Below are positions 1 to 45,467 of a DNA stretch of 64,000 nucleotides, in pieces; positions within the stretch are counted from its first letter, which is position 1, and every line of letters begins with the position of its first letter. A program made the translations under genes and the position numbers. The notes under the pieces were generated by a model, which saw only the letters and a list, made by a program, of their open reading frames with translations, was not told where the DNA came from and did not search any database. Source of the DNA: an uncultured Gemmataceae bacterium (GTDB taxonomy: Bacteria; Planctomycetota; Planctomycetia; Gemmatales; Gemmataceae); assembly GCA_963750165.1 (NCBI GenBank), contig CAVVPN010000003.1:1920001-1984000 (forward strand), written 5' to 3'.

Positions 1-96
1 GGAACAGCCGCTGGCCAGCCCGGCCCGGCGAATCTTGCAGGCGGGGCGGCCTTCCCTACACTGGCAACGGCGCCCGCTTGAACAGGGAGAAACGCG

Positions 97-19072: not shown

Positions 19073-20071
19073 TTAGCGCACCTTCTCCTTGCGAACGAAG
19101 GTGACGTTCAGGTCCGGTAACGGCAATTCATCCGCCTCGCGGTCCGTGGCCGACCACTCGACAGTGTTGTCGTCAACGTATTTCCAGAGATGCACGGACG
19201 TGGAAACCTTGCCGTCGGGAAACACGCCTTCGCAATCGATCTGCCAGTTATTTCCATGGCGCGTCCAGAAACCACCGCCGAAGCCGCCGGACGAGTCGAA
19301 CAGCCAGGAACGCAGACCCTGGCTGTTCGCGTCCCAGCCGATGCGCTGGCGGGCGCTGAGCTGCGTGCCGTCGGCGTGCTTGATGGAGAATTCCTGGATG
19401 AGGAAGGTCTGGTTGGGCGCCCAGCGGCAGGTCATGCGCACCTCGCCCTTGCTGCCCTTCTCCTCCCATTCGCCGACCATCCATGCCAGCGGTTTGAGCT
19501 TCGTGTACGCCGTGGACTGCTCTTCCTCCGTGCCTTCGGGCAGGTCGCGCACACAGCTGATCTGCCATTTGCCGCCCAGCTTGACCCAGACGGCGCTATA
19601 GCGGCCCGGCTCGACGTTGCCCTCCGGGGAGGTCATGAAGACGGTCCCCTCCTCCAGGGCCACGTCCGGCTTGATGAAGCGGAGGCTGCGCACCTTGACT
19701 GACTGCTTGCTGCCCTTGTGCTCGGCCAGCGCTTTCTTGAGCAACCGGCGAATGGCCGCGCGACCCTGCTGCACCGCGCCGGTCTCGGGAATGTACTCGG
19801 CGTCTTCGGTCCAGAAGCCGACCAGAGCGTCCAGATCGCCCTTGTTGAAGGCCTCGGTGTAGTCCTGGCAGGTCTTGCGGATGGCCCGCTCCTCTGCCCG
19901 CCGGGAGAACGGCGTTTCCTTGAGAGCGGCTTTTGGTTTTACCGTGCTGCTTTTGCTGTTGTCTCCGCGTTCGTCCGGATAGGCCCCGGCACGGAACATG
20001 CCTGACAGGGCCAAGCCCGCAACGGCCATGATCGTCAGCAACGCAGCCGCTATCCATTTACGGCTCGACAT
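19073..20071 (-). CDS. SgcJ/EcaC family (SnoaL/NTF2-like, DUF4440) secreted protein
   Basis: YTEAFNKGDLDALVGFWTEDAEY, LRFIKPDVALEEG, LAWMVGEW, RIGWD...SWLFDS.GG. Confidence 0.85.
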   Translation of the reverse strand: MSSRKWIAAALLTIMAVAGLALSGMFRAGAYPDERGDNSKSSTVKPKAALKETPFSRRAEERAIRKTCQDYTEAFNKGDLDALVGFWTEDAEYIPETGAVQQGRAAIRRLLKKALAEHKGSKQSVKVRSLRFIKPDVALEEGTVFMTSPEGNVEPGRYSAVWVKLGGKWQISCVRDLPEGTEEEQSTAYTKLKPLAWMVGEWEEKGSKGEVRMTCRWAPNQTFLIQEFSIKHADGTQLSARQRIGWDANSQGLRSWLFDSSGGFGGGFWTRHGNNWQIDCEGVFPDGKVSTSVHLWKYVDDNTVEWSATDREADELPLPDLNVTFVRKEKVR

Positions 20072-20181
20072 GATGAAGCACCCCGGATGAGAGAACCCCC
20101 GGAGCACCTGGACGCGGCGCCGCGTACCTCTGTTCCCCACTGGTTCGCGAAGAGAACGGCGCTCCTATTTGTTCGTCTTGG

Positions 20182-20197
20182 AGCAGATTGCGTGCCG
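20182..20197 (-). promoter_or_regulatory. sigma54-type -24/-12 promoter for the SgcJ/TPR operon
   Basis: Minus strand CGGCACG-caat-CTGCT (GG-N10-GC). Confidence 0.6.
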
Positions 20198-20551
20198 AAC
20201 GCTCTGCTGGTGTTTCCCTCTTTCCGACGATGCTTGAAGTTGTCTGAATCGTAGCCGTAGCGACGGTAGTGCCACCGCCTGGGCACCTCGACCAGGGCGC
20301 GGATCGGCGAAGACCAACGAGCCGGGCACGACCTCGTCGGCGTGCCCGCCGAACTCGTCCGTTGCTCCTCCCTGCCCTCGGGAGTCGTCATCCGGGCAAG
20401 GTGGCTGTGCGGTTGTGATAGTTGGTTGAGCGGTTCGGGCACACGGTGCCGGCCAGCAGAGGAAGTCAGGCGGTCCTTGCACAAAGTCGATCAAGCGTAC
20501 ACCAGAGCATCTTGCCGCCTTGCAACGATCGATTTGTTGGGCGACATATTT

Positions 20552-20567
20552 CGGCATGAAAAATGCT
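20552..20567 (+). promoter_or_regulatory. sigma54-type -24/-12 promoter
   Basis: CGGCATG-aaaa-ATGCT (GG-N10-GC). Confidence 0.6.
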
Positions 20568-20592
20568 CTTTCTATTTTGCGGTCAAGATTGA

Positions 20593-20706
20593 GATGGTCG
20601 GATGACTCATCGAACGGCAACCCGCCGAAGGCGGGGGGCTTGTTGACGGGTAAGCCGACGGGGAGGAACACCTCGGGTGTTCCTCCCCGTCGGCTTTGTT
20701 GCTTTT
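20593..20706 (+). ncRNA. Unassigned structured leader RNA/attenuator, copy C
   Basis: GTCGGATGACT-N4-GAACGGCAACCCGCCgaaGGCGGGGGGCTTGTTGA plus a perfect 21-bp terminator stem (20652-20696) and U-rich tail. Confidence 0.75.
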
Positions 20707-20812
20707 GACCTGGCATTTGGCTTCGACGTCCAGGTGTGACGCCGGCCTTGATGCCATCTGCGAGTGACGTCATGCGGCCGACATTCCAGGTTGCCCAGGA
20801 GGATTCTCACCT

Positions 20813-21274
20813 ATGAAGACTACACTCATGGCAGTGGCGGCGGCGGCGCTGATCGCGTTCGTCGGTTGCAGCAGTGGCACCCCCGGTGGGCCGGGGGCCG
20901 ACAAGGAAAAGGACAAGAAATCGAGGGTGGAGCGGGCCGAGGACATCGTCAGGCAGGCCGAGGACACCTTCAGCCTGAGCGTCCCAACGTTCTCCGTCAA
21001 GATCAAGCAGGGCGAGTCCAAGGCGGTCACCGTCGGCATCAGCCGTGGGAAGAACTTCGGCGAGGACGTCGCGCTGAAGTTCGACGGCCTGCCCAACGGC
21101 GTGGCCATCGATCCCGCCAACACGGTGATCAAGCACGGCGACAAGGAGGCGAAACTGACCTTCAAGGCGGCGGACGACGCTGCGCTGGGTGACTTCACCG
21201 TCAAGGTCATCGGACACCCGGAGAAGGGCCCCGGCGCCACCAACGAGCTGAAGCTGACCGTGCAGAAGAAGTGA
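20813..21274 (+). CDS. Lipoprotein with beta-rich (Ig-like) domain
   Basis: AGGAGG RBS; FVGC lipobox; strong GC3 bias. Confidence 0.75.
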   Translation: MKTTLMAVAAAALIAFVGCSSGTPGGPGADKEKDKKSRVERAEDIVRQAEDTFSLSVPTFSVKIKQGESKAVTVGISRGKNFGEDVALKFDGLPNGVAIDPANTVIKHGDKEAKLTFKAADDAALGDFTVKVIGHPEKGPGATNELKLTVQKK

Positions 21275-21395
21275 CGTCGCGCTCAGTGGGCCGCACCCGC
21301 CGAACGGGTCGTCGGCCGAAGGACCCATGCAGGCGGCGACAGGCCGTGGCGTCCACGGCGGCCGCCGCTGTGTCTCAAACCATCGAAAGACGTGA

Positions 21396-21647
21396 TTGAT
21401 CTGTCACCTCTGGGGCGGCCAGCCGTTCCAGGTCCCCGACCAGAGCCGGAACAATTTGCTGTTTGGCGTCCTGGCGCTGGGGGAGGGGTGGCTCAACAAC
21501 CACCACGCTTTCCCGACCTCGGCCCGCCACGCCTTGCGCTGGTGGCAGGTAGACCCGAGCTACTACTTCATTTGTACCCTCGCCCTGCTGGGGCTCGCCT
21601 GGAAAGTCCGGCTGCCGGCGGCGGCTCCGATACCGCCCGGACCGTGA
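21396..21647 (+). pseudogene. C-terminal fragment of acyl-CoA desaturase
   Basis: SRNN..FGVLALGEGWLNNHHAFP.SARH.LRWWQ; His box degraded and N-terminus absent. Confidence 0.8.
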
Positions 21648-21710
21648 TCCCGGAGGCTGAGGACAGGCCGCGCACTTGTCGCCTTTGTAATCTTTCTGGA
21701 GGGTTGAATC

Positions 21711-21886
21711 ATGACGATCGGTTTTGTTTACTGGTTGCTGATGATCCTGTGGCTGCTGTTCGGGCTCTACTGGAACCGCGGGGACATCCGGGGGGCAACT
21801 ACAGCATTCTGGGCGGCAACCTGCTGCTGTTCCTCCTGCTGTTCCTCCTGGGATGGAAGGTGTTCGGCTTTATCATCCAGGGGTGA
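21711..21886 (+). CDS. Small membrane protein, frameshifted in a G run (~21790)
   Basis: MTIGFVYWLLMILWLLFGLYW joins GGNYSILGGNLLLFLLLFLLGWKVFG if one G is added. Confidence 0.6.
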
Positions 21887-21988
21887 GACGGGGCCGTGAC
21901 GCCGTTTATTCGCCCACCCTGACTGGTCTGTTGCCCACCGGGGTGATGCTCTCCCCCCGGCAAGTGTGATTCCAAGCGGAGATAAAGC

Positions 21989-23326
21989 ATGCTTGACCAC
22001 CAGCGGGGCGGGCTCGAGGGGAACGCCGATGGCCAGCGCCTGCCCTCCCCTGCGCCATCCGACCGCGAGGCGGTCATGGCCTCCACCTCGCAGCCCCAGT
22101 CAGCAGGCGGGCACGCACCGTCCCTTTTCGGGCGGCTGGCCCGCCAGATCTTCCGAAGGGCCCGCGTCCCCTTGCGGGTGGTCCTGGGGAACGGCGAAGA
22201 AATCACCACCTTGCCCGGGCAGCCGATCGCCTGCGTGCGAATCCGGGACCGGTGGACCGTCCTGCAACTCCTTGCCGGTAATGACCTTGCCTTTGGCGAC
22301 GCCTACAGCGACGGGCGGATCGAGGTCGAAGGGGATCTCGTCCAGTTTCTCGTAGCGGTGTTCCGGAAGCAGGCGAGCGCGGGCCCGCATGGCAATCGGG
22401 GTTCCTGGCTACCGCCCTGGCTGGCCTGGCCGAGAGTCAACAGCCTGACGGGCTCGCGCGGCAACGTTTCCCACCACTACGACGTTGGCAACGACTTCTA
22501 TCGGCTCTGGCTGGACGATCAACTCGTCTACACCTGCGCCTACTTTCCAGACCCCGCACTGACACTGGAGGCGGCGCAGACTGCGAAGATGGACCATGTC
22601 TGCCGCAAGCTACAGCTGCGGCCGGGGCAAACGGTGATCGAGGCCGGCTGCGGCTGGGGGGCGCTGGCCCGGCACATGGCCCGGCACTATGGGGTGACGG
22701 TCAGGGCGTTCAACCTGTCCCACGAGCAGGTCGAGTACGCACGCGCACGGGCGAAGGCGGAAGGGCTGGACCGACAGGTGCAGTTCGTGGAAGACGACTA
22801 CCGGAATATCTCCGGTGAGTGCGACGCCTTCGTGTCCGTGGGGATGCTGGAACACGTCGGCGTCAGCTATTACCGCGACCTCGGGGGCGTCATCCACCGC
22901 TGTCTGAAGCCTAATGGCCTCGGCCTCATACACTCGATCGGCCGGAACTGGCTCTTCCCAACGAGTGCCTGGATAGAAAGGCGCATCTTCCCCGGCGCCT
23001 ACATACCCATCCTGCGCGAGATCATGGGGATCTTCGAGCCGTGGAACTTCTCCGTCCTGGACGTGGAAAACTTGCGCCTGCACTATGCCAGGACGCTCGC
23101 GCACTGGCTGGCGCGTTTCGACCAGGCGGTCGGCCGGGTCCGCGATATGTTCGATGATCGCTTCGTGCGGTCCTGGCGGCTGTACCTGGCCAGTTCCCTG
23201 GCCGCGTTCTCCACCGGGTGGAATCAGCTCTTTCAGATCCTGTTTGCCCACGCCGCGAACAACGACATCCCCTGGACGAGGGGGCACGTGTACGAACAAC
23301 CGTCAGGGAGCAGATCCGCATGTTGA
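21989..23326 (+). CDS. Cfa-family SAM-dependent lipid methyltransferase (start may be 22076)
   Basis: HHYDVGNDFY.LWLD, YTCAYF, EAGCGWG, SVGMLEHVG, IFPG, ENLRLHYARTL. Confidence 0.92.
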   Translation: MLDHQRGGLEGNADGQRLPSPAPSDREAVMASTSQPQSAGGHAPSLFGRLARQIFRRARVPLRVVLGNGEEITTLPGQPIACVRIRDRWTVLQLLAGNDLAFGDAYSDGRIEVEGDLVQFLVAVFRKQASAGPHGNRGSWLPPWLAWPRVNSLTGSRGNVSHHYDVGNDFYRLWLDDQLVYTCAYFPDPALTLEAAQTAKMDHVCRKLQLRPGQTVIEAGCGWGALARHMARHYGVTVRAFNLSHEQVEYARARAKAEGLDRQVQFVEDDYRNISGECDAFVSVGMLEHVGVSYYRDLGGVIHRCLKPNGLGLIHSIGRNWLFPTSAWIERRIFPGAYIPILREIMGIFEPWNFSVLDVENLRLHYARTLAHWLARFDQAVGRVRDMFDDRFVRSWRLYLASSLAAFSTGWNQLFQILFAHAANNDIPWTRGHVYEQPSGSRSAC

Positions 23327-24462
23327 GCTGTGACGTCCTGATCGTCGGGGGCGGGCCAGCCGGTTCTTCCTGTGCCTGGCACCTGGTGAAGGCTGGCCTC
23401 GACGTTCTCGTCCTGGACCGGAAGGCCTTTCCGCGCGACAAGCCCTGCGCCGGCTGGATCACGCCCGCGGTCTTCCACGAATTGGATATCGACCCGAACG
23501 AGTATCGCCAGCAGGGGCGCGTGCTGGAGCCGATCACGGCGTTTTGCACCAGCCTGATGGGCGGGGCCGAGGTGGAAACAGGCTATGGCAAGCCCATCAG
23601 CTTCGGGGTCCGTCGGTGCGAGTTCGACCATTACTTGCTGCGGCGTTCGGCAGCTCGCCTACAGCTGGCGGAGCCCCTGAAGACAATTGAGCGCTCGGGG
23701 GAAGGCTGGGTGGTCAACGGCCAGATCCAGGCCCGCCTGGTCGTCGGCGCCGGCGGCCATTTCTGCCCGGTCGCCCGCTTCCTCGGCGCCAGGGTCGGGC
23801 GAAACGAAACGGCGGTGAACGCGCAGGAGATCGAGGTCGAGCTGGACGCGGACCAGATGGCGGCGTGCCCCGTCAGGTCCGGCATCCCTTATCTGTACTT
23901 CTGCTCAGACCTGAAGGGATACGGGTGGTACTACCGCAAGGGGAACTACCTCAACGTCGGGCTGGGGCGGGAGGACGAGGATAGGCTCTCCGAGTACGTA
24001 CACACGTTCTGCGCCTGGCTGAAGGCGCAAGGCAAGGTCCCGCGCACCGTCCTGGAGAAGTTCAGCGGGCACGCCTACCTGCTGTATCCGCGAGCGGGGC
24101 GGCGGCGCCTGGTGGACGACGGCGTTCTGTTGATCGGCGACGCCGCGGGGATGGCCTACTCCCCGAGCGGGGAAGGCATCCGCCCCGCGGTCGAATCCGG
24201 GCTGCTGGCCGCCGACGTCATCCTCGAGGCGGCTGGCGACTATCGCCTAGCGCGGCTGGAGCCCTATCGAACACGCTTGACGGCCCGGTTTGGCAAGAGG
24301 CCCGCCAACGACTTGGCCTCCCGCATCCCGGAGTGGCTGAAGCGACTGATCGCGCGCCGACTGATGGCCTGGCGCTGGTTCTCGCGACACGTCCTGGTGG
24401 ATCGGTGGCTCTTGCACCTCCACGAGCCCCCGCTCGAGGCTGCCACTGCGGCGAGCCGGTGA
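23320..24462 (+). CDS. Geranylgeranyl-reductase-like FAD-dependent oxidoreductase
   Basis: VLIVGGGPAGS, FPRDKPCAG, GYGWY, LIGDAAG...GEGI; overlaps the cfa stop. Confidence 0.88.
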   Translation: MLSCDVLIVGGGPAGSSCAWHLVKAGLDVLVLDRKAFPRDKPCAGWITPAVFHELDIDPNEYRQQGRVLEPITAFCTSLMGGAEVETGYGKPISFGVRRCEFDHYLLRRSAARLQLAEPLKTIERSGEGWVVNGQIQARLVVGAGGHFCPVARFLGARVGRNETAVNAQEIEVELDADQMAACPVRSGIPYLYFCSDLKGYGWYYRKGNYLNVGLGREDEDRLSEYVHTFCAWLKAQGKVPRTVLEKFSGHAYLLYPRAGRRRLVDDGVLLIGDAAGMAYSPSGEGIRPAVESGLLAADVILEAAGDYRLARLEPYRTRLTARFGKRPANDLASRIPEWLKRLIARRLMAWRWFSRHVLVDRWLLHLHEPPLEAATAASR

Positions 24463-24549
24463 AGCCCGAGTCTCTGCTGAACTCGCCGGGCCGCGCAGAT
24501 GCCACGTCACCACCGCCCGTTCCCCAACTGTGGGTGGGCAGAGCCGGAG

Positions 24550-25200
24550 TTAGCTGGACAGGGCAATCAGGGCCAAGGTGATGGTGCCGCCAATCACCGC
24601 ATAGCCGATGGTGGCCCGAACCCAGCCCTCCCTGCCGTGCAGACAACCGAGGTGAGCTTGCGCAACCAGGAGGTCCTGATCCTGCTTCTGGAGGGCGGCC
24701 TCCGCCTCACACGCCCTGGCGTATTCGGCGTCCGCACCGGGAAGGGGGCCTTTCTCAGCCAGTGCAGCAGCGGCCAGTTGCCGGACCAGCCTCACTCGTT
24801 CGGCTTTCAGCGTCCCACCCGAAGTCTTCGCAGCCCCGGCCCAGCGTATCTTCTCGTCCAGGGCGCTGATCTGCGCCCCAAGCTCGCCATCGTCAATCCC
24901 GCCGGTGTACATGCGCTGGCCGAGGGCCAGTTGGGCCATGGCGAAAGCCCGGCTCAATGAGCGCCTGCGCCACCGGCCCCTGGCGTGCGTCACGAATCGA
25001 ACCGGGTGCTCATAGGTCGCCCAGCACGTCTGTCGTATCTCCCGCAGGAGCCGTCTCCCCACGGAGTTCGCGAAGACCAGGGCCCGACCGCCCAGATGGG
25101 CAGGAAATCCAGACCCGGTGGCCCAGGAAGGTTCGGGTGAGACTTTCAGCTGGCCGCAGGCTGGGCTTCGTGCGGAATCGGCGGAGATAAAGTTTGACAT
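24550..25200 (-). CDS. Hypothetical protein with coiled coil and C-terminal TM segment (start uncertain)
   Basis: Open frame with AQLALGQRMY..GIDDGELGAQI and a hydrophobic C-terminus. Confidence 0.5.
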   Translation of the reverse strand: MSNFISADSARSPACGQLKVSPEPSWATGSGFPAHLGGRALVFANSVGRRLLREIRQTCWATYEHPVRFVTHARGRWRRRSLSRAFAMAQLALGQRMYTGGIDDGELGAQISALDEKIRWAGAAKTSGGTLKAERVRLVRQLAAAALAEKGPLPGADAEYARACEAEAALQKQDQDLLVAQAHLGCLHGREGWVRATIGYAVIGGTITLALIALSS

Positions 25201-25236
25201 GGCGTCCTTCCAATCCCCTCCCCGACGGGGACTCAC

Positions 25237-25404
25237 TCACAGTTGTATAACTCGCAACAGGAACAGAACGAGGAGGATGACCAGGATCAACCCGAGGAGA
25301 CCGCCGCCGCCGGCGAGGATATTGTTGCCGCTGCGGTAGCCGTAGCCGCCGCCCAGCAGGACGAAGATCAAGATCACGACAAGGATCAGCACGATAGGAC
25401 TCAT
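25237..25404 (-). CDS. DUF3309-like small membrane protein
   Basis: MSPIVLILVVILIFVLLGGGYGY...GGGGLLGLILVILLVLFLL; below the ORF-track size cutoff. Confidence 0.75.
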   Translation of the reverse strand: MSPIVLILVVILIFVLLGGGYGYRSGNNILAGGGGLLGLILVILLVLFLLRVIQL

Positions 25405-25490
25405 GGTTCACTCCCGGAGACCAAAGACCAGCTACAGATTCTCCATTCGCACGGAAGGGGGCCACCCTCCGGTTCGTCGGCCTCCCGCGC

Positions 25491-25709
25491 CTACTTCACC
25501 GCCCCAGGGAACCGAACTTCTTTCTCGAACCAGGCGATGGCCCCTTCCGCTTCCTTCTCTCCGTAGCCGTAGAGGCGTTGGAGGGAAACCCCCAGCTTGT
25601 CCCGGCGGCCATCAATCTCCTCCAGGTCCCTGTCCGTGAGCTTCGCCCAGTAGGTCTTGAGGAGCGAACTCGACCCCTTCCAGTCCAATTGCAGTTCTTC
25701 CCAATTCAT
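25491..25709 (-). CDS. CsbD/YjbJ family stress protein
   Basis: MNWEEL..DWK....WAKLTDRDLEEIDGRRDKL...LQRLYG; GGAGG RBS. Confidence 0.85.
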   Translation of the reverse strand: MNWEELQLDWKGSSSLLKTYWAKLTDRDLEEIDGRRDKLGVSLQRLYGYGEKEAEGAIAWFEKEVRFPGAVK

Positions 25710-25807
25710 GGCACCCTCCGTCTCCTCACGCTTGGCGACCTAATCGCGGACAAGCCGTTCTTGGTCTGGCCGGCGCCGTTCTGGACCATCGCCGTCTGCA
25801 CCACGGG

Positions 25808-26152
25808 TCATTTGGCTTCGATTTTCTTGGGCTGGGTTTCCGCGCCACCTGCCTTGATGGCGACCTTCACGGCATCCTCCATCGGATCTTTGAACGGCAC
25901 CTCGATGCGGAGCAGGCCGTGCTCGTAGATCGCTTCGGCCTTGTCAGGTTTCACCGGCCAGGCCAAAGCCAGTGCAGAAACATACTCGACGTCCCTTGCA
26001 GGCGCCGTGAGGTGGATGCTGTCTGCCAGGGTCTTCACATCGATGGTATCCGTTGGCACTCCGGGGAGGGCGAACTCCACGACCAGCTTGCGGTTCTTCT
26101 CGTCAGCATACGCGACGGTATCGGGCGCAACCCTCATCCGATAGTCAGGCAT
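25808..26152 (-). CDS. Hsp20/alpha-crystallin small heat shock protein
   Basis: EFALPGV...IDV, AEAIYEHGLLRIEVP; AAGGAGG RBS. Confidence 0.85.
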   Translation of the reverse strand: MPDYRMRVAPDTVAYADEKNRKLVVEFALPGVPTDTIDVKTLADSIHLTAPARDVEYVSALALAWPVKPDKAEAIYEHGLLRIEVPFKDPMEDAVKVAIKAGGAETQPKKIEAK

Positions 26153-26218
26153 CCTGGCAACCTCCTTCGTTAGGCATGGACCCCTGGAATGGTCTCTTGT
26201 TCTTCCGCCACCGAAAGC

Positions 26219-26328
26219 AAAAAAAGCCGGCGTGGTTGAGCACCTCGAGGGTACTCGACCACGCCGGCCTACTCTTCGACGAGCCCCCCGGTACAGCCGA
26301 GGTGCCCTTCATCTAGTCGTCCGACAAT
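26219..26328 (-). ncRNA. Unassigned structured leader RNA/attenuator, copy A
   Basis: Minus strand GTCGGACGACT-N4-GAAGGGCACCTCGGctgtaCCGGGGGGCTCGTCGA plus terminator GGCCGGCGTGG...CCACGCCGGC-T7. Confidence 0.75.
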
Positions 26329-26442
26329 TCTTACTCTATGCGTCGCTTCACGAAAAGCAAGTAGAAAACTTGCCCGCTCCGGTATTTGCGTTTTTTCTTC
26401 CTTGTCCAGCATCGTTAGCGGTTGGGCCTTGGCCTTGATCCA

Positions 26443-27453
26443 TCATCGGGGCGCGGGGTGGAGGTCGGCGAACGTCGGGACTGGTGCGTCCACAGCGGTT
26501 ATCGTGGGCTGGATGAGACGGTGCGTCAGCGCCTTCTCGCCTGGCTTGCGCAGATGCCATACCAGCCCGAGGCAGCGCAGGCAAAGCAGCGTCATGTAAC
26601 TGATGTCGATCTCCCACCAGAAGAAGCCCTGGTTCGCGCTGCTCTGGTAGTGGTGGTGGTTGTTGTGCCAGCCCTCGCCCAGCGTGATCAGCGCCAGCCA
26701 GACGTTGTTGCGGCTGTCGTCGGGAGTGTCGTAGCGGCGCGAGCCGAAAAGGTGGCTGAGCGAGTTGATCGTGAAGGTGGCGTGGTAAACCAGGATGGTG
26801 CTGACCACGAAGCCCCACACCAGGCCGCTCCAACCGCCCACCAGCCAGCACAGCACCGCCAGACAGATGCCCGGTACCCAGTGGTTGCGGTCCAGCCAGC
26901 GCAGCTCGGGGTAACGGCTCCAATCCTGGATTTGCTCCCAGGGTGTCTCGGTGTGCTCGCCGGACAGAATCCAGCCGACATGAGACCACCAGAAGCTTGT
27001 CTCGTGGGGCGAGTGGGGGTCGGCGGGGGTATCGGAACGCCGGTGGTGCTCACGGTGGTGAGCCGCCCACCACAGCGGTCCCTTCTGAAGGGCCGAGCAG
27101 CCCAGCCAGGCCAGCACGAACTGGAAAACACGACTGGTCCGGTACGAGCGATGAGCAAAGTAGCGGTGGTAACCCGCCGTGATGCCGAACATGCGCAGGA
27201 AATAAGCAACCCCGCAGAGGATCAGCGCGGTCGCCTCCACGGGGACGAAGAACACCGATACCATGGCCAGGTGCAGGGCAATGAACGCAGCACACTTCGT
27301 CCAGTCGGGCAAGCGGAACAGCAATGGCCGGGCTTGCGGAAGTTGGCCCGCGACAGGCTGCCGGGAGGGCCGGGCGGACGTGTCGGCAGCACCGCCGATC
27401 ACGGGGGCAGAGTGGAACCCGGCAGGTGCTTGCGGGCAGCTCGTTTGACTCAT
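26443..27453 (-). CDS. Acyl-CoA (delta-9 type) fatty acid desaturase
   Basis: Three His boxes: HRYFAH, HREHH, EGWHNNHH. Confidence 0.92.
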   Translation of the reverse strand: MSQTSCPQAPAGFHSAPVIGGAADTSARPSRQPVAGQLPQARPLLFRLPDWTKCAAFIALHLAMVSVFFVPVEATALILCGVAYFLRMFGITAGYHRYFAHRSYRTSRVFQFVLAWLGCSALQKGPLWWAAHHREHHRRSDTPADPHSPHETSFWWSHVGWILSGEHTETPWEQIQDWSRYPELRWLDRNHWVPGICLAVLCWLVGGWSGLVWGFVVSTILVYHATFTINSLSHLFGSRRYDTPDDSRNNVWLALITLGEGWHNNHHHYQSSANQGFFWWEIDISYMTLLCLRCLGLVWHLRKPGEKALTHRLIQPTITAVDAPVPTFADLHPAPR

Positions 27454-27539
27454 GACCTTCTTTCCCAAGAGTCGGACCGACACCTACCATGGGTGTCTCG
27501 ATTTTCATCAAGTAACACATATTCACCGTAAGCCGTGCG

Positions 27540-27923
27540 TCATCTCTTCACGGCTTCGAGGGCCTTCTCTCTGGTCGGGTGGATGGGCCAGACGCAGTCG
27601 AGGCCGGTGGCATGCAGCATGCCGCTGGCATCGCGAGAGACGTTGCAGAGGACCATCCGCCCGTCACGATCTCGGGCCTTCTTCCACAGGCGAAGAAACA
27701 GGCCCAGAGCCGTGCCGCCGAAGTTTCTCGCCCTATGAAGGTCTACGACAATGTTATGCGCTCGCACGTCGTTTAGCAGGCCCCGTGCCACGTCGTCCGC
27801 CCAGGCCTGGCTCTCTTGACAGTCCAGCTTTGGCAATGCCCCCAGCGGAGTCATGATGACCGTCTCGCCCTCACGCTCCACCTCGAAGCTTCGCGTCGCC
27901 GTCCTCGCGTCTGTCCCGCTCAT
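27540..27923 (-). CDS. STAS-domain anti-anti-sigma factor
   Basis: IVVDL....FGGTALGLFLRLWK...DGRMVLCNVS....L..TGL; GAGGT RBS. Confidence 0.82.
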   Translation of the reverse strand: MSGTDARTATRSFEVEREGETVIMTPLGALPKLDCQESQAWADDVARGLLNDVRAHNIVVDLHRARNFGGTALGLFLRLWKKARDRDGRMVLCNVSRDASGMLHATGLDCVWPIHPTREKALEAVKR

Positions 27924-27975
27924 GTCGTAAACCTCATGCCTGCTCTGCCCACCCGGCTTCTCGGGCAGCGTTTTA

Positions 27976-27991
27976 GGCAAGTGCCGTGCCA
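27976..27991 (-). promoter_or_regulatory. sigma54 -24/-12 promoter for STAS-desaturase
   Basis: Minus strand TGGCACG-gcac-TTGCC, near-perfect consensus. Confidence 0.78.
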
Positions 27992-28225
27992 GCGGTGGAT
28001 CGCGAGGCGAAGGAAGTGGTTTCTGCCGGGTTTGTTTGAAGCAACGGGTTTTCCGTAAAGCCTGGCAGTGTGCTTCCATCGCATATTCCGGCGAGCCAGT
28101 GTGCCACTGCCGCACAGTTCCCTCTCGGCTCCAGGTATTCGCCCTGTCCGCGTACGAGATCGGCCGCATGTAAACCGGAGGTCTCCTCGCGGCCCGAAGC
28201 AATCGCTTCGTTGGTCGGTATGCTT

Positions 28226-28241
28226 CGGCATGACAAATGCT
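28226..28241 (+). promoter_or_regulatory. sigma54-type -24/-12 promoter
   Basis: CGGCATG-acaa-ATGCT; nearly identical to 20552-20567. Confidence 0.6.
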
Positions 28242-28270
28242 CCTGTGATCGTGCGAGGAGGAGTGAAATG

Positions 28271-28366
28271 ATCGGATGAATCCAGGATGGGCAACTCGTG
28301 AGTCCGCTGCTCGCGTTCGGTAGTGGAGTTCCACGGCGAGTCACGCAGAGCTAGGGGGGATTTCCC
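28271..28366 (+). ncRNA. Diverged copy D of the leader RNA (no terminator)
   Basis: ATCGGATGAAT-N4-GATGGGCAAC; same 32-nt offset from the -12 GC as copy C. Confidence 0.5.
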
Positions 28367-28651
28367 ATGACTACCTTGGTAGAGAGCATCCATCATCCAG
28401 GCGGCCTCGTCTCCTGGCTGATCGTTGGTGTCGTTGCCGGCCTCCTTGTGGGCTTCTTGATGAAAGGCGCCCATGGCATCATCGGCGACCTCGTCGTGGG
28501 CGTGTTCGGGGCCGTGATCGGCGGGTTCCTGTATGGGCTCTTCACCGCCGGCACCACCGGCTTCTGGGGCAGTATCGTCGTGGCCTTCCTCGGCGCCTGC
28601 ATCCTCATCGGTGTCGAACGGGCCGTGTCTCGAGCACGGGACAGGCTCTGA
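28367..28651 (+). CDS. GlsB/YeaQ/YmgE family stress membrane protein
   Basis: WLIVGVVAGLL...GIIGDLVVGVFGAVIGG...IVVAFLGACIL. Confidence 0.88.
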   Translation: MTTLVESIHHPGGLVSWLIVGVVAGLLVGFLMKGAHGIIGDLVVGVFGAVIGGFLYGLFTAGTTGFWGSIVVAFLGACILIGVERAVSRARDRL

Positions 28652-28702
28652 CACGCAGCGGGCCCCCGCCAGCGTGGCTACAGAGCGACGGAGGACAAGG
28701 CC

Positions 28703-29363
28703 ATGTCTCAATTGATTAGCCAGAAGATCAATCCGCCCGCGGACTCGCCCGTGGCCGCACCGACCGCGGCCTCGCCATTGGGTGAAGAAGCCACGCCCTG
28801 TCCTGCCAAACAACCCCAGGGGCTTCCCACCCCTCCGCCATCGGCATTCGTGCTCATCATGGTGTTCTGGATGCTTCTGGGAGGAGCCGCCGGGATCAAG
28901 ATCATGCAGAGCATCTGGCACATCCTGGGTGTTGATATCGGGTCGGTGGCCATCGCAGTCCCGGTCGGAGGCGTAGTCGGAGCACTGGCCGGAGGGCTCC
29001 TGGGCCTGATCAGTAACCCGCGCTGGCTCGTGCTCCTGATGGCAGTGTTCGCCGGCTCGGCAGCCGGAGGGGTCGCGGGACAGGTTCCGTGGGGGGCGAT
29101 CGGGCAAATCGGGGGTCAAGTTGCCGGCGGGGTGGTTGGCGTGATTGTCTGGGCTACCTGGCTGTTTTTCGGGCGCGGGAAGGATTCAACGGCGGAACCC
29201 GTGCGCAGCACGACAGCCGTCGGCGGCCATCCAGGTCCCGCCGCTTCTCGACCCCCTCAGAGCGTGCCCAAGGAGGTGGATGATGGTGATCCGAGAGATG
29301 AGCACGGAAGAGTGCCTCCGGGTGCTGGCCGGAGCGAGGTTGGCCAGGCTGGGTTGCGCCATG
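28703..29363 (+). CDS. Gly-rich membrane protein (3' end uncertain)
   Basis: About four hydrophobic Gly-zipper segments; reads through into the next gene only because of an apparent 1-nt deletion. Confidence 0.55.
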
Positions 29364-29929
29364 AGAATCAACCGTACGTCGTCCCCGTCACCCTCGCCTA
29401 CGATGAAGTGTCCCGGTGTCTCTACGGCTTCACGACCCCTGGCCAGAAGATCGAGTGGATGCGGGCCAACCCTCTGGTCTGCGTCGAGGTGGACGAGGTC
29501 GCGGCCGACGACCAGTGGGTAAGCGTCATCGCTTTTGGCCGCTACGAGGAGGTGCCGGAGGGCCCAGAGAGCGATGGCGGACGGCTCCCGGCCCTGGAGC
29601 TTCCGCGGCGGTTCGCCGAAGCCCCGTCTGCCTGGTCCGCCGACAGCCACCAGCGCCAGTGCGATGACGAGCGGGAACGGGCATGGCAGGTCCTCCAGAC
29701 CCACCCTATGTGGTGGCAGCCGGCCAGCTCGGTCTGGGCAGCTCGCGCCCACCGCGACCCGGCCGAGCCGTTCCATTCTGTCTACTACAAGATCCGGATC
29801 GACCGGGTCACAGGTCGTGAGGCGACGCTGGACGCCAGGGATGCGATCGCTCACGCCGTGCCAGGCCCGCATATTGAGAGATGGGGCCGGTTGCGCTGGA
29901 CAACAACGAGAGTGCTCGGCGGCAAGTGA
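29283..29929 (+). CDS. Pyridoxamine 5'-phosphate oxidase-like flavin-binding protein, frameshifted ~29360
   Basis: MVIREMSTEECLRVL...LARLGCA joins HENQPYVVPV...GQKIEWMRANPLVCVEVD; GGAGG RBS. Confidence 0.8.
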
Positions 29930-30087
29930 AAGGAGACTCGCTCGGCCGCGCGTGTGCGTTTTCGCCCATCATCGTTGGCCGTTCCTGGTCGGCGCAAGTC
30001 TGTCCTATGGGTATGCGCCAGGGACGGTATCACGTCAGTCTCGACAGAAGAAGGGCTTCCAGCATTCCTCCTGATTTGTTCGCCATG

Positions 30088-30103
30088 CGGCATGAAAAGT
30101 GCG
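30088..30103 (+). promoter_or_regulatory. sigma54-type -24/-12 promoter
   Basis: CGGCATG-aaaa-GTGCG (GG-N10-GC). Confidence 0.5.
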
Positions 30104-30242
30104 AAGAATCATGACGGCATCGAAGGAACGATGGGACCATGAATCGGAGTAGGAGTTGTAGCCAGGGCCCCCGAGCGGTACGATGAAGCAAGCGACGGAC
30201 CGCCGATGAACATTGGGCCCGCCTTGACAACCAGGTGAATCG

Positions 30243-30356
30243 CAGTCGTCGGAAGACTGGGCGAAGGGCAACCTGGCCGTGCCGGGGGGCTCGTTGAGAA
30301 GAAGGCCGACGTGGTTGAATACCTCATCAGGGTGTTCCACCACGTCGGCTTTTTTT
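30243..30356 (+). ncRNA. Unassigned structured leader RNA/attenuator, copy B
   Basis: GTCGGAAGACT-N4-GAAGGGCAACCTGGccgtgCCGGGGGGCTCGTTGA plus terminator GGCCGACGTGG...CCACGTCGGC-T7. Confidence 0.75.
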
Positions 30357-30465
30357 ATTTGACTTCAACCAAACTCTGGAAAGGGGTTGATCGGGAGGAA
30401 AGGCGATGCTGGCGCTCAGCCCGTCATTCCTCACAAGTCACCCCACTCTTTAAGGAGAACAGGCC

Positions 30466-30651
30466 ATGTTGCGTTCAACCATCGGACTGGCGGTCGCGTT
30501 CCTTGTCATCGCTCTGATCGCCGGATTCTTCGGCTTCATCGGAGTCGGAAGCCTTGCGTGGGAGGGGGCGAAGATCCTCTTCTTCATCTTCCTCGTCCTC
30601 GCGGTGCTGGCTTTCGTGGGAGGGTTCTTCTTCAGAGGGAGGAGTGTCTGA
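30466..30651 (+). CDS. DUF1328 (YtjA-like) small membrane protein
   Basis: FLVIALIAGFFGF.GV......AKILFFIFLVL; AAGGAG RBS. Confidence 0.88.
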   Translation: MLRSTIGLAVAFLVIALIAGFFGFIGVGSLAWEGAKILFFIFLVLAVLAFVGGFFFRGRSV

Positions 30652-30736
30652 CGGACGAGAGCCTGTCGTCAGAAGCTTCCCGAGCAACTGAAGGGAAAGC
30701 TGGCGTTCTGGTCGTCGGCGAGGAAGGAGGACGAGT

Positions 30737-30797
30737 CCCCGCACCACCCTTCTTCACGGAACCCGACTGTTTTCGATTGTGAAGAGCGGGGTTTTTT
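30737..30797 (+). terminator. Bulged hairpin with T tract between DUF1328 and DUF2934
   Basis: CCCCGC..TCTTCAC / GTGAAGA-GCGGGG followed by a T run. Confidence 0.45.
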
Positions 30798-30837
30798 CAA
30801 ACTGTCAGATCGCCCAAGGACACAAAGGAGTGATCTC

Positions 30838-31071
30838 ATGCACGCACATCCCCACAAACATGCCACACCGGCACAGCCTGGTCCGACTGGACCAACGCCT
30901 GCGACACAAACTGCCGTCGCCTCTTGCGACAAGGGCCACAAGGCCCCGTTGGTTTCCGATGAAACCATTCGGGTCTGTGCCTACCGGAAATGGGAGAACG
31001 CAGGAAAGCCGACCGGGGACGACGTCCAGTTCTGGCTCGCAGCGGAGCAAGAGCTGCGCCAGGGCAAGTAG
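30838..31071 (+). CDS. DUF2934 domain protein
   Basis: ETIRVCAYRKWENAGKPTGDDVQFWLAAEQEL. Confidence 0.85.
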   Translation: MHAHPHKHATPAQPGPTGPTPATQTAVASCDKGHKAPLVSDETIRVCAYRKWENAGKPTGDDVQFWLAAEQELRQGK

Positions 31072-31541: not shown

Positions 31542-31691
31542 CCCAGCAATCAGAGGGCCTGGTTGATAGACGAGTCGAACAATCACGGCTTCCCAGCGTT
31601 GGGTGCCCAAGGCCGCTGCCGACGTTCGGCAGCGGCATGTTTCCCAACGAGTCGCAGAGTGCATGCACCTCGAGGAGAAAGGAGAGTTGTC

Positions 31692-33536
31692 ATGGGTGTT
31701 CTTCTGCAAGCCTTTTTCAGGCCGGGCGATAAAGGGGTCCCGTGCCCTGGGGACGGAGACCTGGGTGCTGACTGGTGGTGGGATCACCTCGCCATGCAGG
31801 CTCACGCGATTCGCAAGGCGGGGTTCACGGCCGTCTGGTTGCCCCCCGTATGGAAGGGAGCCTCCGGGATCCAGTCCATCGGTTACGACCCCTTTGATGA
31901 CTACGACATGGGCGCCAAGGATCAGCGCGGGACGCTGCCGACGCGCTACGGTAGCCGCGAGCAGTTGGCCAGGTGCGTCGCCATGCTGCGGGCCAATGAC
32001 CTGGACGTCTATGTGGACCTGGTGGAGCACCACCGGGGCGGTGGCATTGGCCACGAAGGCAAGACCTTCCGCTACGCGGATGCAGAAGGCAGGCCCAGCG
32101 GCGGGCGCTTTCCCAAGGACACGTCCAGTTTCACTGGCGGCGACATCCCGCGCGAGCCGAGGATCATCGAGGATTTATCCTTCGGCTCCGTCCTGGCTCC
32201 GGTCAACGGCAGGCCGCATGCCTACGTCTTCGGCGGACTACTTGCCAGCGCCGACTGGATGACGCGGGCCCTGGACATCCAGGGCTTTCGTCTGGACTTC
32301 GTCAAGGGGATGTCCACGGACTTCGTCTTCCCCCTACTGCAACACGGCGCGCTTGAAGGCAAGTTCGGAGTGGCGGAATTCTTCGACGGTGACCTTGGCC
32401 TGGTGCGCGATTGGGTTTCCAACCCCAGTGGCATGCGCGGCCGCGTCAGTGCCTTCGACTTCCCGCTCCGTGGCCTCCTTGTCCAGATGTGCAACAACGC
32501 CGGCTCCTTTGACATGTCCCAGCTGGACCACGCGGGCCTGGCCGGGATCGACCCTCAGCACGCCGTCACCTTCGTGGAGAACCACGATACGGACACCGGG
32601 CACGGGCCGATCTTCTGGAACAAGGCCCAGGCCTATGCGTATATCCTGACCTCCGAGGGTTATCCGTGCGTCTATTACAAGGATTACAGCACGGACCCTG
32701 GTTGCTATGGGTTGAAAAAGGTCATCGACAACCTGGTCTGGATCCACGAGAAACTGGCGAACGGCCCGACCCAGCGGCGCTGGAAGGACTACGACGTGTA
32801 CGCCTACGAGCGACTGGCCGGCGCCCATCTGCTGGTCGGTCTAAACAATCATGGTGAAGCGCAGCGATCTATCACGGTGGACACGGGCTTCGGGCCGAAT
32901 GCGATACTGCACGACTACACGGGGCATGGCGGCGACGTGCGGACCGATGACCGCGGGCGCGTGACGATCACCATCCCCCGGAACGACAGCGGTCGGGGCT
33001 ACGTCTGCTATTCGCGGGCCGGGATCAGCGGGGACTTCGCCATCAAGGGCCACAGTGTCACCCAGGACTACGAAGGCGCCCTGGACCTGGACATCAAGCC
33101 TGCCGACAGCACGCGGTTCGTGCAGGTTTGTCGGGTGTGGGTGGCGCAGGACAAGCCCATTCGCGCATCGCTGCGTTACGACACGTCCTCCTGGGCGGAT
33201 GCAACGAGCATGGTTTTGGAACTGGCCGATCCAATGGGAAATCGGATCGCGAGCCGAACCTACACGCTGAAAGCACAGGGCGAGGCGCTGGATGCCACCG
33301 CCGCAACGCCGAGCTGGTATACGTTCCGTATTCGCTCGGTGAACCCTCCCGCTGCCAACCCGAAGACGAGTTACAAGCTGACCGTCACGTACCAGGCGCC
33401 TCAGCAAATGGTCGAGAGCAAGAACTCCGTCGAGTCGGAGTGCCACTCGGGTACGACACTGGAGAGCACACACGACGAACGCCAGGAGGCCGCGTCCTCC
33501 ACCCGGTCGAACGCTGAGCAGGCCACGGCCGTGTAG
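31692..33536 (+). CDS. Alpha-amylase (GH13) with C-terminal extension
   Basis: GYDPFDDYD, GFRLDFVKG nucleophile, VAEFF, FVENHD. Confidence 0.9.
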   Translation: MGVLLQAFFRPGDKGVPCPGDGDLGADWWWDHLAMQAHAIRKAGFTAVWLPPVWKGASGIQSIGYDPFDDYDMGAKDQRGTLPTRYGSREQLARCVAMLRANDLDVYVDLVEHHRGGGIGHEGKTFRYADAEGRPSGGRFPKDTSSFTGGDIPREPRIIEDLSFGSVLAPVNGRPHAYVFGGLLASADWMTRALDIQGFRLDFVKGMSTDFVFPLLQHGALEGKFGVAEFFDGDLGLVRDWVSNPSGMRGRVSAFDFPLRGLLVQMCNNAGSFDMSQLDHAGLAGIDPQHAVTFVENHDTDTGHGPIFWNKAQAYAYILTSEGYPCVYYKDYSTDPGCYGLKKVIDNLVWIHEKLANGPTQRRWKDYDVYAYERLAGAHLLVGLNNHGEAQRSITVDTGFGPNAILHDYTGHGGDVRTDDRGRVTITIPRNDSGRGYVCYSRAGISGDFAIKGHSVTQDYEGALDLDIKPADSTRFVQVCRVWVAQDKPIRASLRYDTSSWADATSMVLELADPMGNRIASRTYTLKAQGEALDATAATPSWYTFRIRSVNPPAANPKTSYKLTVTYQAPQQMVESKNSVESECHSGTTLESTHDERQEAASSTRSNAEQATAV

Positions 33537-45394: not shown

Positions 45395-45467
45395 TGGGCG
45401 TTGCTGGATTTGAACCAGCGACTCCCGCCGTGTGAGGACGGTACTCTAGCCACTGAGTTAAACGCCC
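45395..45467 (-). tRNA. tRNA-Val(CAC)
   Basis: GGGCGTT/AACGCCC acceptor stem, D loop AGTGGCTA, anticodon loop CT-CAC-AC, T loop TTCAAAT; no encoded CCA. Confidence 0.95.

Follow-up and report, generated by a model that had tools for sequence, protein, structure and literature searches.

The window analyzed here is a stretch of 64,000 nt from an uncultured Gemmataceae bacterium (assembly GCA_963750165.1, contig CAVVPN010000003.1, positions 1,920,001 to 1,984,000), and it contains three copies of a leader RNA, termed C, A and B in the order of their position, each located shortly upstream of a gene or a run of genes (Table 1). An earlier note on this DNA had described a four-copy family of attenuator-like elements leading stress-gene operons. 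The three elements it located are recovered by the pattern GTCGGANGACT-N3-6-GAASGGCA, which matches at 20597 (+), 26325 (–) and 30248 (+), compared to 0.00 matches expected in the window (100 shuffles). All three copies fold into a tiny 5′ hairpin (P1, GUC-GGAN-GAC), a longer imperfect hairpin (P2) and an intrinsic terminator of the 20-bp class followed by a U-tract, and these single-sequence folds outperform those of shuffled sequences, with z from –5.2 to –7.3, the latter value for copy C. The P2 variants, the exchanges of G-C for A-U pairs between the terminators of A and B, and the different, perfect stem of copy C are as the note had them, and the U-tract is followed by the next start codon after about 107 nt in copy C (ATG at 20813), 66 nt in copy A (ATG at 26152) and 109 nt in copy B (ATG at 30466). 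The fourth copy is absent: a search of the window with a covariance model built from the three copies (model R1), run with filters off, yielded no further one, all other matches being at most 22 bits and falling on unrelated GC hairpins, besides reverse-strand echoes of the elements’ own terminators. Genome-wide, the same model finds eight full copies, all on contig C3.

Matches to R1 have been identified in 17 out of 61 related genomes, with up to approximately 17 copies per genome. They are present in 14 of the 36 genomes of the window’s own family, in none of the 15 from the sister family, and in one genome each of two other families in the class. With R2, a model rebuilt on the complete set of copies, the RNA is found in five of 121 genomes spread evenly over the phylum, the source genome included; hence by both models the distribution is patchy and concentrated in the window’s own family. 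The note did not recognize the element as a known riboswitch class, and a check against Rfam 15 agrees with it, as the window gives only a tRNA at gathering thresholds (45395–45467, minus strand, 65.2 bits), while in the region 20000–31000, with E up to 10, only chance matches on terminator hairpins are observed (miRNA families, isrB, FinP), far below gathering scores. No description of such a family was found in abstracts and listings of the literature on regulatory RNAs of Planctomycetes, CsrA and DUF2294/MpsC. The family appears to be undescribed, being absent from Rfam 15 and from the literature searched.

From 63 loci in 15 genomes, 73 matches (72 full-length) were aligned and show strong covariation against shuffles. 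This alignment was fitted to the model and hence leans towards the model structure, and many of its loci share a genome or belong to related ones, which makes the counts non-independent. Paired cells constitute 94.9% of the alignment compared to 85.8% in shuffles, none of 500 shuffles reached any of the five measures, and controls with the alignment slid had only 27–51% paired. Two-sided changes are observed in 27 of the 35 family pairs, in particular in 12 of the 13 pairs of P2 and in 15 of the 19 pairs of the terminator. Thus, the covariation proposed in the earlier note holds for P2 and the terminator but not for P1 (GUC/GAC), which is conserved and covaries in none of its three pairs. Letters conserved in at least 90% of sequences form TCGGAnGAC near the 5′ end, AGTAAGCCG just before or inside the 5′ arm of the terminator, and a few purines in the internal loops of P2; along with the 5′ UCGGAnGAC, the copies have the stretch AGUAAGCCG in common. 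Within the terminator, the sequence of the seven lower pairs hardly changes, and the upper stem varies freely. The P1 loop is 4 nt long and the apical loop of P2, approximately 3–5 nt. One copy (L049:11513–11675) retains a score of 104.6 bits with about 50 nt inserted near the apex of P2, which suggests that the tip of P2 is functionally unconstrained. Two further copies (L088:1–104 and L090:2930–3015) are cut inside the terminator by contig ends running into long runs of G or C; because of such apparent assembly breaks at a strong hairpin, copy numbers in draft genomes should be considered as lower bounds.

The elements are nearly always co-oriented with the downstream genes. We scanned against Pfam 268 open reading frames (ORFs) of two sets, same-strand ones of at least 40 aa starting within 400 nt downstream of a copy and opposite-strand ones of at least 70 aa ending within 300 nt downstream. 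A Pfam-supported gene on the same strand starts at most 400 nt downstream in 55 out of 72 copies, and only one of the 104 opposite-strand ORFs has a Pfam match, so that the copies are not oriented randomly relative to genes (55 to 1). This single match is an integrase (rve) at L054:1287–2183 (minus strand), convergent to its leader copy, and probably represents an insertion sequence that has landed behind the leader. Out of the 17 copies with no Pfam-supported gene, three (e27, e28, e67) have less than 400 nt of downstream sequence, and two precede a tandem copy. The terminator thus lies within a 5′ leader, as in terminator-coupled cis-regulatory leaders. A mobile, REP-like intergenic repeat was rejected given this orientation bias and the two-sided changes, and a peptide-coding leader, as ATG codons within the element are not conserved (by eye).

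The most frequent downstream genes encode MpsC/DUF2294 proteins (20 copies), followed by CsrA, Dps-like ferritins and fatty-acid desaturases (three copies each), and by extracytoplasmic function (ECF) sigma factors and PAS histidine kinases (two each); receiver-domain proteins are first in line in two copies and second in two. CsbD, DUF1328, DUF2934, DUF3309, Hsp20, Transgly_assoc, a ribosome hibernation factor, BON, an ice-binding protein, a cupredoxin, an M48 peptidase and others are observed in single cases. Judging by the family names, this set may be regarded as a general stress regulon. The 20 downstream MpsC genes start approximately 18–60 nt after the U-tract, with a ribosome site of the GGGA/GGAG type; as there is no space for a separate promoter, transcription of these genes must pass through the terminator.

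Upstream of most copies there is a sigma-70-like site, (c)aCTTGCTTTCC...TACAAT, which the earlier note had not remarked on, and the pattern TTGNNN-16..18-TANNNT occurs within 130 nt upstream in 55 out of 72 copies, compared to about seven by chance (estimated from the pattern frequency, not by shuffling). The distance from the end of the –10 box to the model start is at most 25 nt in 15 copies (short form) and 40–80 nt in 36 copies (long form), the box being elsewhere in four. In the window, copies A and B have a short and a long form, respectively, and copy C has no clean match to the promoter pattern. Many long forms contain an inverted repeat GGAGCC...GGCUCC in the extra 5′ stretch (by eye). 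Alignment of these extensions (MAFFT and RNAalifold) gave no consensus pairs, and three of the four single-sequence folds tested were no better than shuffles; the repeat could equally be a DNA operator. In addition, a simple consensus scan of 20300–30800 found no canonical promoter in the spacers; as it failed to detect the promoters of the leaders themselves and all but one of the three terminators, this result is uninformative.

The complementarity of the 5′ GTCGG to CCGRC of the terminator 5′ arm, pointed out in the earlier note, extends to most of the family: in the alignment, these pairs can form in 63–72 of the 73 sequences. They would constitute the base of a rod, above which follow a 3 × 3 internal loop (A-N-G opposite A-A-G), an ACU:AGU helix, small loops and P2. 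When transcripts are cut before the lower 3′ arm of the terminator, at least four of the five GUCGG:CCGRC pairs are present in the minimum-energy fold of 66 out of 72 copies; the full-length folds hold the terminator in 70 out of 72, and imposing the rod base on full-length RNA is unfavorable by a median of 11.2 kcal/mol. Hence, as the note had it, the 5′ helix is predicted to compete with the terminator. The only variable position of the lower terminator (127) contains exclusively A or G (A-U to G-C in 22 sequences), and both can pair with the fixed U6 of the rod. The sequence constraint on the lower stem and the folds of nascent transcripts are two indirect points favoring the rod. As in the predicted folds the rod forms first and the terminator wins at equilibrium, the layout is that of an ON switch needing something to hold the rod. 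The second alternative pairing of the note, GGCU:RGCC, was not retained: 62.7% of its cells are paired compared to 63.2% in shuffles, it shows no double changes, and it conflicts with the covarying P2. An AGUC/GACU helix was also rejected as weak, with 70.5% of cells paired compared to 68.7% in shuffles and each pair broken in 18–28 of the 73 sequences.

Taken together, these data suggest that the elements are probably leaders of a stress regulon with a conditional intrinsic terminator. Out of what the note had proposed for them, namely an attenuator coordinating stress genes, the RNA family, its covariation, co-orientation and competing folds are observed, while conditional read-through is what we infer from folds and comparison. 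The proposed mechanism is as follows. Each element would be the 5′ leader of a transcription unit with its own sigma-70-like promoter and a conditional terminator. In the nascent RNA the 5′ half would pair with the 3′ half, forming the rod, whose base occupies the 5′ arm of the terminator. If the rod remains intact, the polymerase would read on into the stress genes (ON), and if the 3′ arm of the terminator displaces the rod base, an RNA of about 110 nt (about 165 nt for the long form) would be released and the genes would be off. Since the terminator exceeds the rod in stability by a median of about 11 kcal/mol, a factor holding the rod should be required for read-through. The type-1 DUF2294 protein, encoded divergently beside many copies, could be this factor, and the type-2 protein, whose gene immediately follows the terminator, would be one of the regulated products and possibly exert feedback.

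The genomic linkage of the RNA and DUF2294 genes points to this protein family. In the source genome all nine MpsC/DUF2294 matches are located on contig C3, at 538–540 kb and 1962–2029 kb, and these two stretches also contain or adjoin the eight RNA copies (539–553 kb and 1940–2021 kb). Proteins of type 1 are 126 aa long, with approximately 65–80% identity between genera and a basic tail, and those of type 2 have about 139 aa. Type-1 genes are divergent and located 110–575 nt upstream of at least 17 out of 72 copies, a lower bound, as many contigs end nearby; type-2 genes lie 33–102 nt downstream of 20 copies, and ten copies have both types. A close type-1 gene (at least 65% identity) is present in 15 of the 61 relatives, 13 of which have the RNA; of the other two, one has a copy cut by a contig end, and in one (80% complete) none was found. 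Conversely, two genomes have the RNA and no close type-1 gene, both of them fragmented. On this basis type-1 DUF2294/MpsC is, tentatively, our leading effector candidate, ahead of a small ligand or CsrA. A broader proposal, that DUF2294/MpsC proteins are a new class of RNA-binding antiterminators, with type 1 holding the rod for the planctomycete stress regulon and type 2 feeding back, seems possible but on the doubtful side.

Several individual loci add to the picture of DUF2294-associated leaders. Tandem copies about 400 nt apart precede a type-2 gene at L073:669–781 and 1182–1295 and at L084:888–1000 and 1405–1517, the same arrangement on two contigs of one genome. Outside the window, the copy at C3:2014464 (locus L011) has a divergent type-1 gene broken into two pieces (C3:2014907–2015241), which suggests a frameshift and may mark a decaying module. 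In five genomes having MpsC homologues and no RNA match, R2 found nothing among the 150 candidates scored per genome, and direct scans of their loci revealed a single true copy, which is truncated, along with a group of weak leader variants. The variant leader-like element is observed in five relatives lacking the main family (L091:3241–3331, L094:3145–3230, L095:2945–3037, L096:3195–3293 and L097:3182–3276), co-oriented with and 110–190 nt downstream of a DUF2294 homologue of approximately 50% identity. Its components are a TTGACA-type promoter, a small hairpin, AGGCCGG...CCGGCC and a T-tract; it may represent a second variant of the RNA, matched to a second subfamily of DUF2294.

A number of observations weigh against the reading of the elements as conditional leaders or against DUF2294 as their effector. 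Neither the rod base nor the ACU:AGU helix exceeds shuffles in covariation, their strands being almost invariant. At least 45 out of 72 copies, including the three in the window, have no DUF2294 gene within 1.5 kb, so that any action of type 1 on the window copies would be in trans, and the window’s own type-1 gene has no adjacent RNA copy. It stands alone, 12 kb from the three copies, with no leader nearby in the filters-off R1 search. The protein structure is equally uncommitted. A sequence search of the Protein Data Bank (PDB) with DUF2294 gave nothing below E 0.6. The AlphaFold model of type 1 is confident (pLDDT 91.2), and Foldseek with it yields only weak matches to Bet3/TPC6, YslB and H-NOX (E at least 0.018, TM at most 0.48). 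A wide structure comparison gave no clear RNA-binding fold, the best matches (Z 6.6) being to unrelated chains, and V4R and RbfA reaching Z 4.7 and Z 5.4, respectively; judging by the model, the fold neither supports nor excludes RNA binding. Moreover, ORFs of the two strands were selected by somewhat different criteria for the orientation count, and like the other counts it suffers from the non-independence of the loci. Finally, the very strong terminators would also fit constitutive termination and a stand-alone small RNA.

An ON-type riboswitch, in which the conserved internal loops of the rod bind a small molecule or ion (e.g., a stress alarmone or an osmolyte-related ligand) that stabilizes the rod over the terminator, with DUF2294 as no more than a regulated product, would agree with the terminator-coupled architecture, with the conserved purine-rich internal loops in an otherwise covarying hairpin, and with the high copy number per genome, and it would not require the DUF2294 gene that most copies lack in their neighborhood. 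It is nevertheless unlikely, as the downstream genes are heterogeneous (regulators, chaperone-like proteins, ferritin, desaturase) with no common transporter or pathway pointing to a ligand, the rod is simple, with no junction or pseudoknot detected, and both the tight placement of the two DUF2294 types and the co-occurrence of type 1 with the RNA would be left unexplained.

We consider it improbable that the elements are mainly trans-acting sibling small RNAs of about 110–165 nt with a constitutive terminator, the downstream genes being expressed via leak-through or unseen promoters. Although the promoter of their own, the very strong terminator and the multiple copies with highly conserved stretches (UCGGAnGAC and AGUAAGCCG) as possible seeds are consistent with such RNAs, these stretches coincide exactly with both strands of the terminator-competing helix, and neither the orientation bias nor the MpsC genes starting immediately behind the U-tract would be expected. 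Besides, no match to Hfq (PF17209) was found in the source genome (93% complete) by a search that was positive in five control genomes, and the candidate class of Hfq-dependent trans-acting small RNAs was rejected for this genome.

The GGA in a hairpin loop resembles CsrA/RsmE sites (the earlier note compared it with CsrA/RsmA sites), and CsrA bound to the GGA loop of GUC-GGAN-GAC could keep the 5′ strand from the rod and favor termination, its relief allowing read-through. The GGA indeed occupies a 4-nt loop of a short hairpin in 67 out of 72 copies, csrA genes are located directly downstream of three copies, and the source genome has seven CsrA paralogues, two of them in the first island. 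However, this is the single conserved GGA position of the RNA, GGA is not enriched (2.04 per element compared to 2.26 in shuffles), its A is replaced by C in four out of 72 copies, both G’s are also accounted for by antiterminator pairing, and CsrA is found in 61 of 61 relatives (1–11 matches each), with or without the RNA. Control by CsrA is thus unfavored and, in our estimate, very unlikely. A titrating RNA of the CsrB/RsmY/RsmZ type was rejected, since such RNAs contain multiple GGA motifs.

The least credible alternative is a factor-independent kinetic or thermal switch, with the early rod persisting in the cold or at a changed transcription speed; the rod does form first in nascent folds and cold-type genes (desaturases in three copies, an ice-binding protein) are found downstream, yet this purely inferential scheme leaves the strict conservation of the internal loops and the DUF2294 linkage unexplained.

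The features of the window are listed in Table 1. The gene names given in the earlier note for the regions downstream of the copies are roughly right: DUF3309, DUF1328, DUF2934 and alpha-amylase are supported by Pfam, while the Hsp20 and CsbD matches are weak. Other neighbors of the copies encode a cyclopropane-fatty-acid synthase (21989–23326, plus strand), a fatty-acid desaturase located directly upstream of copy A (26443–27483, minus strand) and a SnoaL/DUF4440 protein (19073–20140, minus strand). With these membrane-lipid and stress-type genes, the part of the window around the copies looks like a stress island.

Table 1. Leader RNA copies, their parts and associated genes in the window.
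Feature	Position	Strand	Basis or remark
Leader RNA, copy C	20593..20705	+	Model R1, 120.3 bits, E 1.4e-26, filters off
5′ strand of copy C, GUCGGAUGAC	20597..20606	+	P1 mini-hairpin or putative antiterminator 5′ strand (rod base); sequence, family column conservation
P2 hairpin of copy C (upper rod)	20611..20645	+	Fold; family covariation
Intrinsic terminator of copy C	20652..20709	+	Perfect stem of 20–21 bp and T-rich tail
ORF 3′ of copy C, 153 aa	20813..21274	+	Lipoprotein-like N-terminus (signal peptide/lipobox by eye), no Pfam family
DUF3309 small protein, copy A run	25237..25404	–	23.2 bits, cut-off 22.3
CsbD-like ORF, copy A run	25491..25709	–	Weak Pfam match
Hsp20-like gene 3′ of copy A	25808..26152	–	Weak Pfam match, E 7.5e-4, below curated cut-off
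Leader RNA, copy A	26215..26329	–	Model R1, 127.1 bits, filters off
Intrinsic terminator and U-tract of copy A	26219..26270	–	Sequence, fold
P2 hairpin of copy A	26277..26311	–	Fold
5′ strand of copy A, GUCGGACGAC	26316..26325	–	P1 or putative antiterminator 5′ strand; sequence
Promoter-like site of copy A	26333..26360	–	TTGCTT, 16 nt, TAGAGT; –10 ends 7 nt before GUCGG; short form
Promoter-like site of copy B	30156..30184	+	TTGTAG, 17 nt, TACGAT; –10 ends 59 nt before model start; long form
Leader RNA, copy B	30244..30360	+	Model R1, 124.9 bits, filters off
5′ strand of copy B, GUCGGAAGAC	30248..30257	+	P1 or putative antiterminator 5′ strand; sequence
P2 hairpin of copy B	30262..30296	+	Fold
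Intrinsic terminator and U-tract of copy B	30303..30356	+	Sequence, fold
DUF1328 gene 3′ of copy B	30466..30651	+	Pfam, E 1.7e-12
DUF2934 protein, copy B run	30838..31071	+	Pfam, E 2.7e-13
Alpha-amylase family protein, last gene of copy B run	31563..33536	+	Pfam
Type-1 MpsC/DUF2294 gene, 126 aa	42124..42504	+	127 bits; candidate trans factor

If the reading of the elements as conditional leaders is true, a single RNA switch with eight to approximately 17 copies in a genome would jointly control genes for chaperone-like, membrane, iron-storage, ribosome-hibernation and regulatory functions, and would provide a direct handle on the general stress response of planctomycetes, in which gene regulation is poorly understood. 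With type-1 DUF2294 as the antiterminator, this response would rely on antitermination and not on an alternative sigma factor, and DUF2294/MpsC, a family with thousands of members (at least 8000 relatives were scored in one search), would obtain its first testable function. The mechanism class, a terminator-coupled leader, is already known; what appears to be new is the RNA family and the putative role of DUF2294 as its partner.

ON-type transcriptional riboswitches in which a strand of the closing helix is shared with the terminator include the adenine riboswitch pbuE, the guanidine-I riboswitch ykkC and the Na+ riboswitch (DUF1646 motif). The RNA described here resembles them in being a 5′ leader co-oriented with the genes, in the predicted mutual exclusion of closing helix and terminator, in the conserved loop nucleotides within a covarying stem and in the presence of several copies per genome, but differs in having no match in Rfam 15, in a gene set of general stress and not of one metabolite, and in the tight linkage to DUF2294.

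Antitermination at leader hairpins can also depend on proteins, as in the case of BglG/SacY/LicT with RAT, HutP with the hut leader, and ANTAR regulators. Here too a hairpin over the 5′ arm of the terminator would need stabilizing, the gene of a candidate regulator adjoins a target leader, and one factor could serve many leaders. Unlike in BglG/SacY/LicT systems, no CAT_RBD domain (PF03123) was found in the source genome (93% complete), the same search being positive in four control genomes, and antitermination of this type was rejected for this genome. ANTAR targets are defined by two tandem hairpins with hexanucleotide loops, the second one overlapping the terminator, plus an ANTAR regulator; the leader loops in our family are not paired hexaloops, the two ANTAR genes of the source genome (on C1 and at C3:172 kb) are far from the islands and from all eight copies, and an ANTAR-regulated leader was likewise rejected. 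In contrast to the known antiterminators, DUF2294 has no known RNA-binding fold, and its binding of RNA is putative.

With CsrB, RsmY/Z and CsrA-controlled leaders the family shares a short hairpin with GGA in its loop and the occurrence of csrA among the downstream genes, and it differs from Csr/Rsm RNAs in the single conserved GGA, in the absence of an Rfam match and in that the GGA bases would double as the antiterminator strand. Finally, leaders can give rise to regulators in their own right: SreA is a riboswitch-derived small RNA that also acts in trans. Similarly to the attenuator-derived small RNA rnTrpL of Sinorhizobium (PMC6614838), termination at the leaders of this family would release a stable structured RNA of about 110–165 nt, in this case from many loci.

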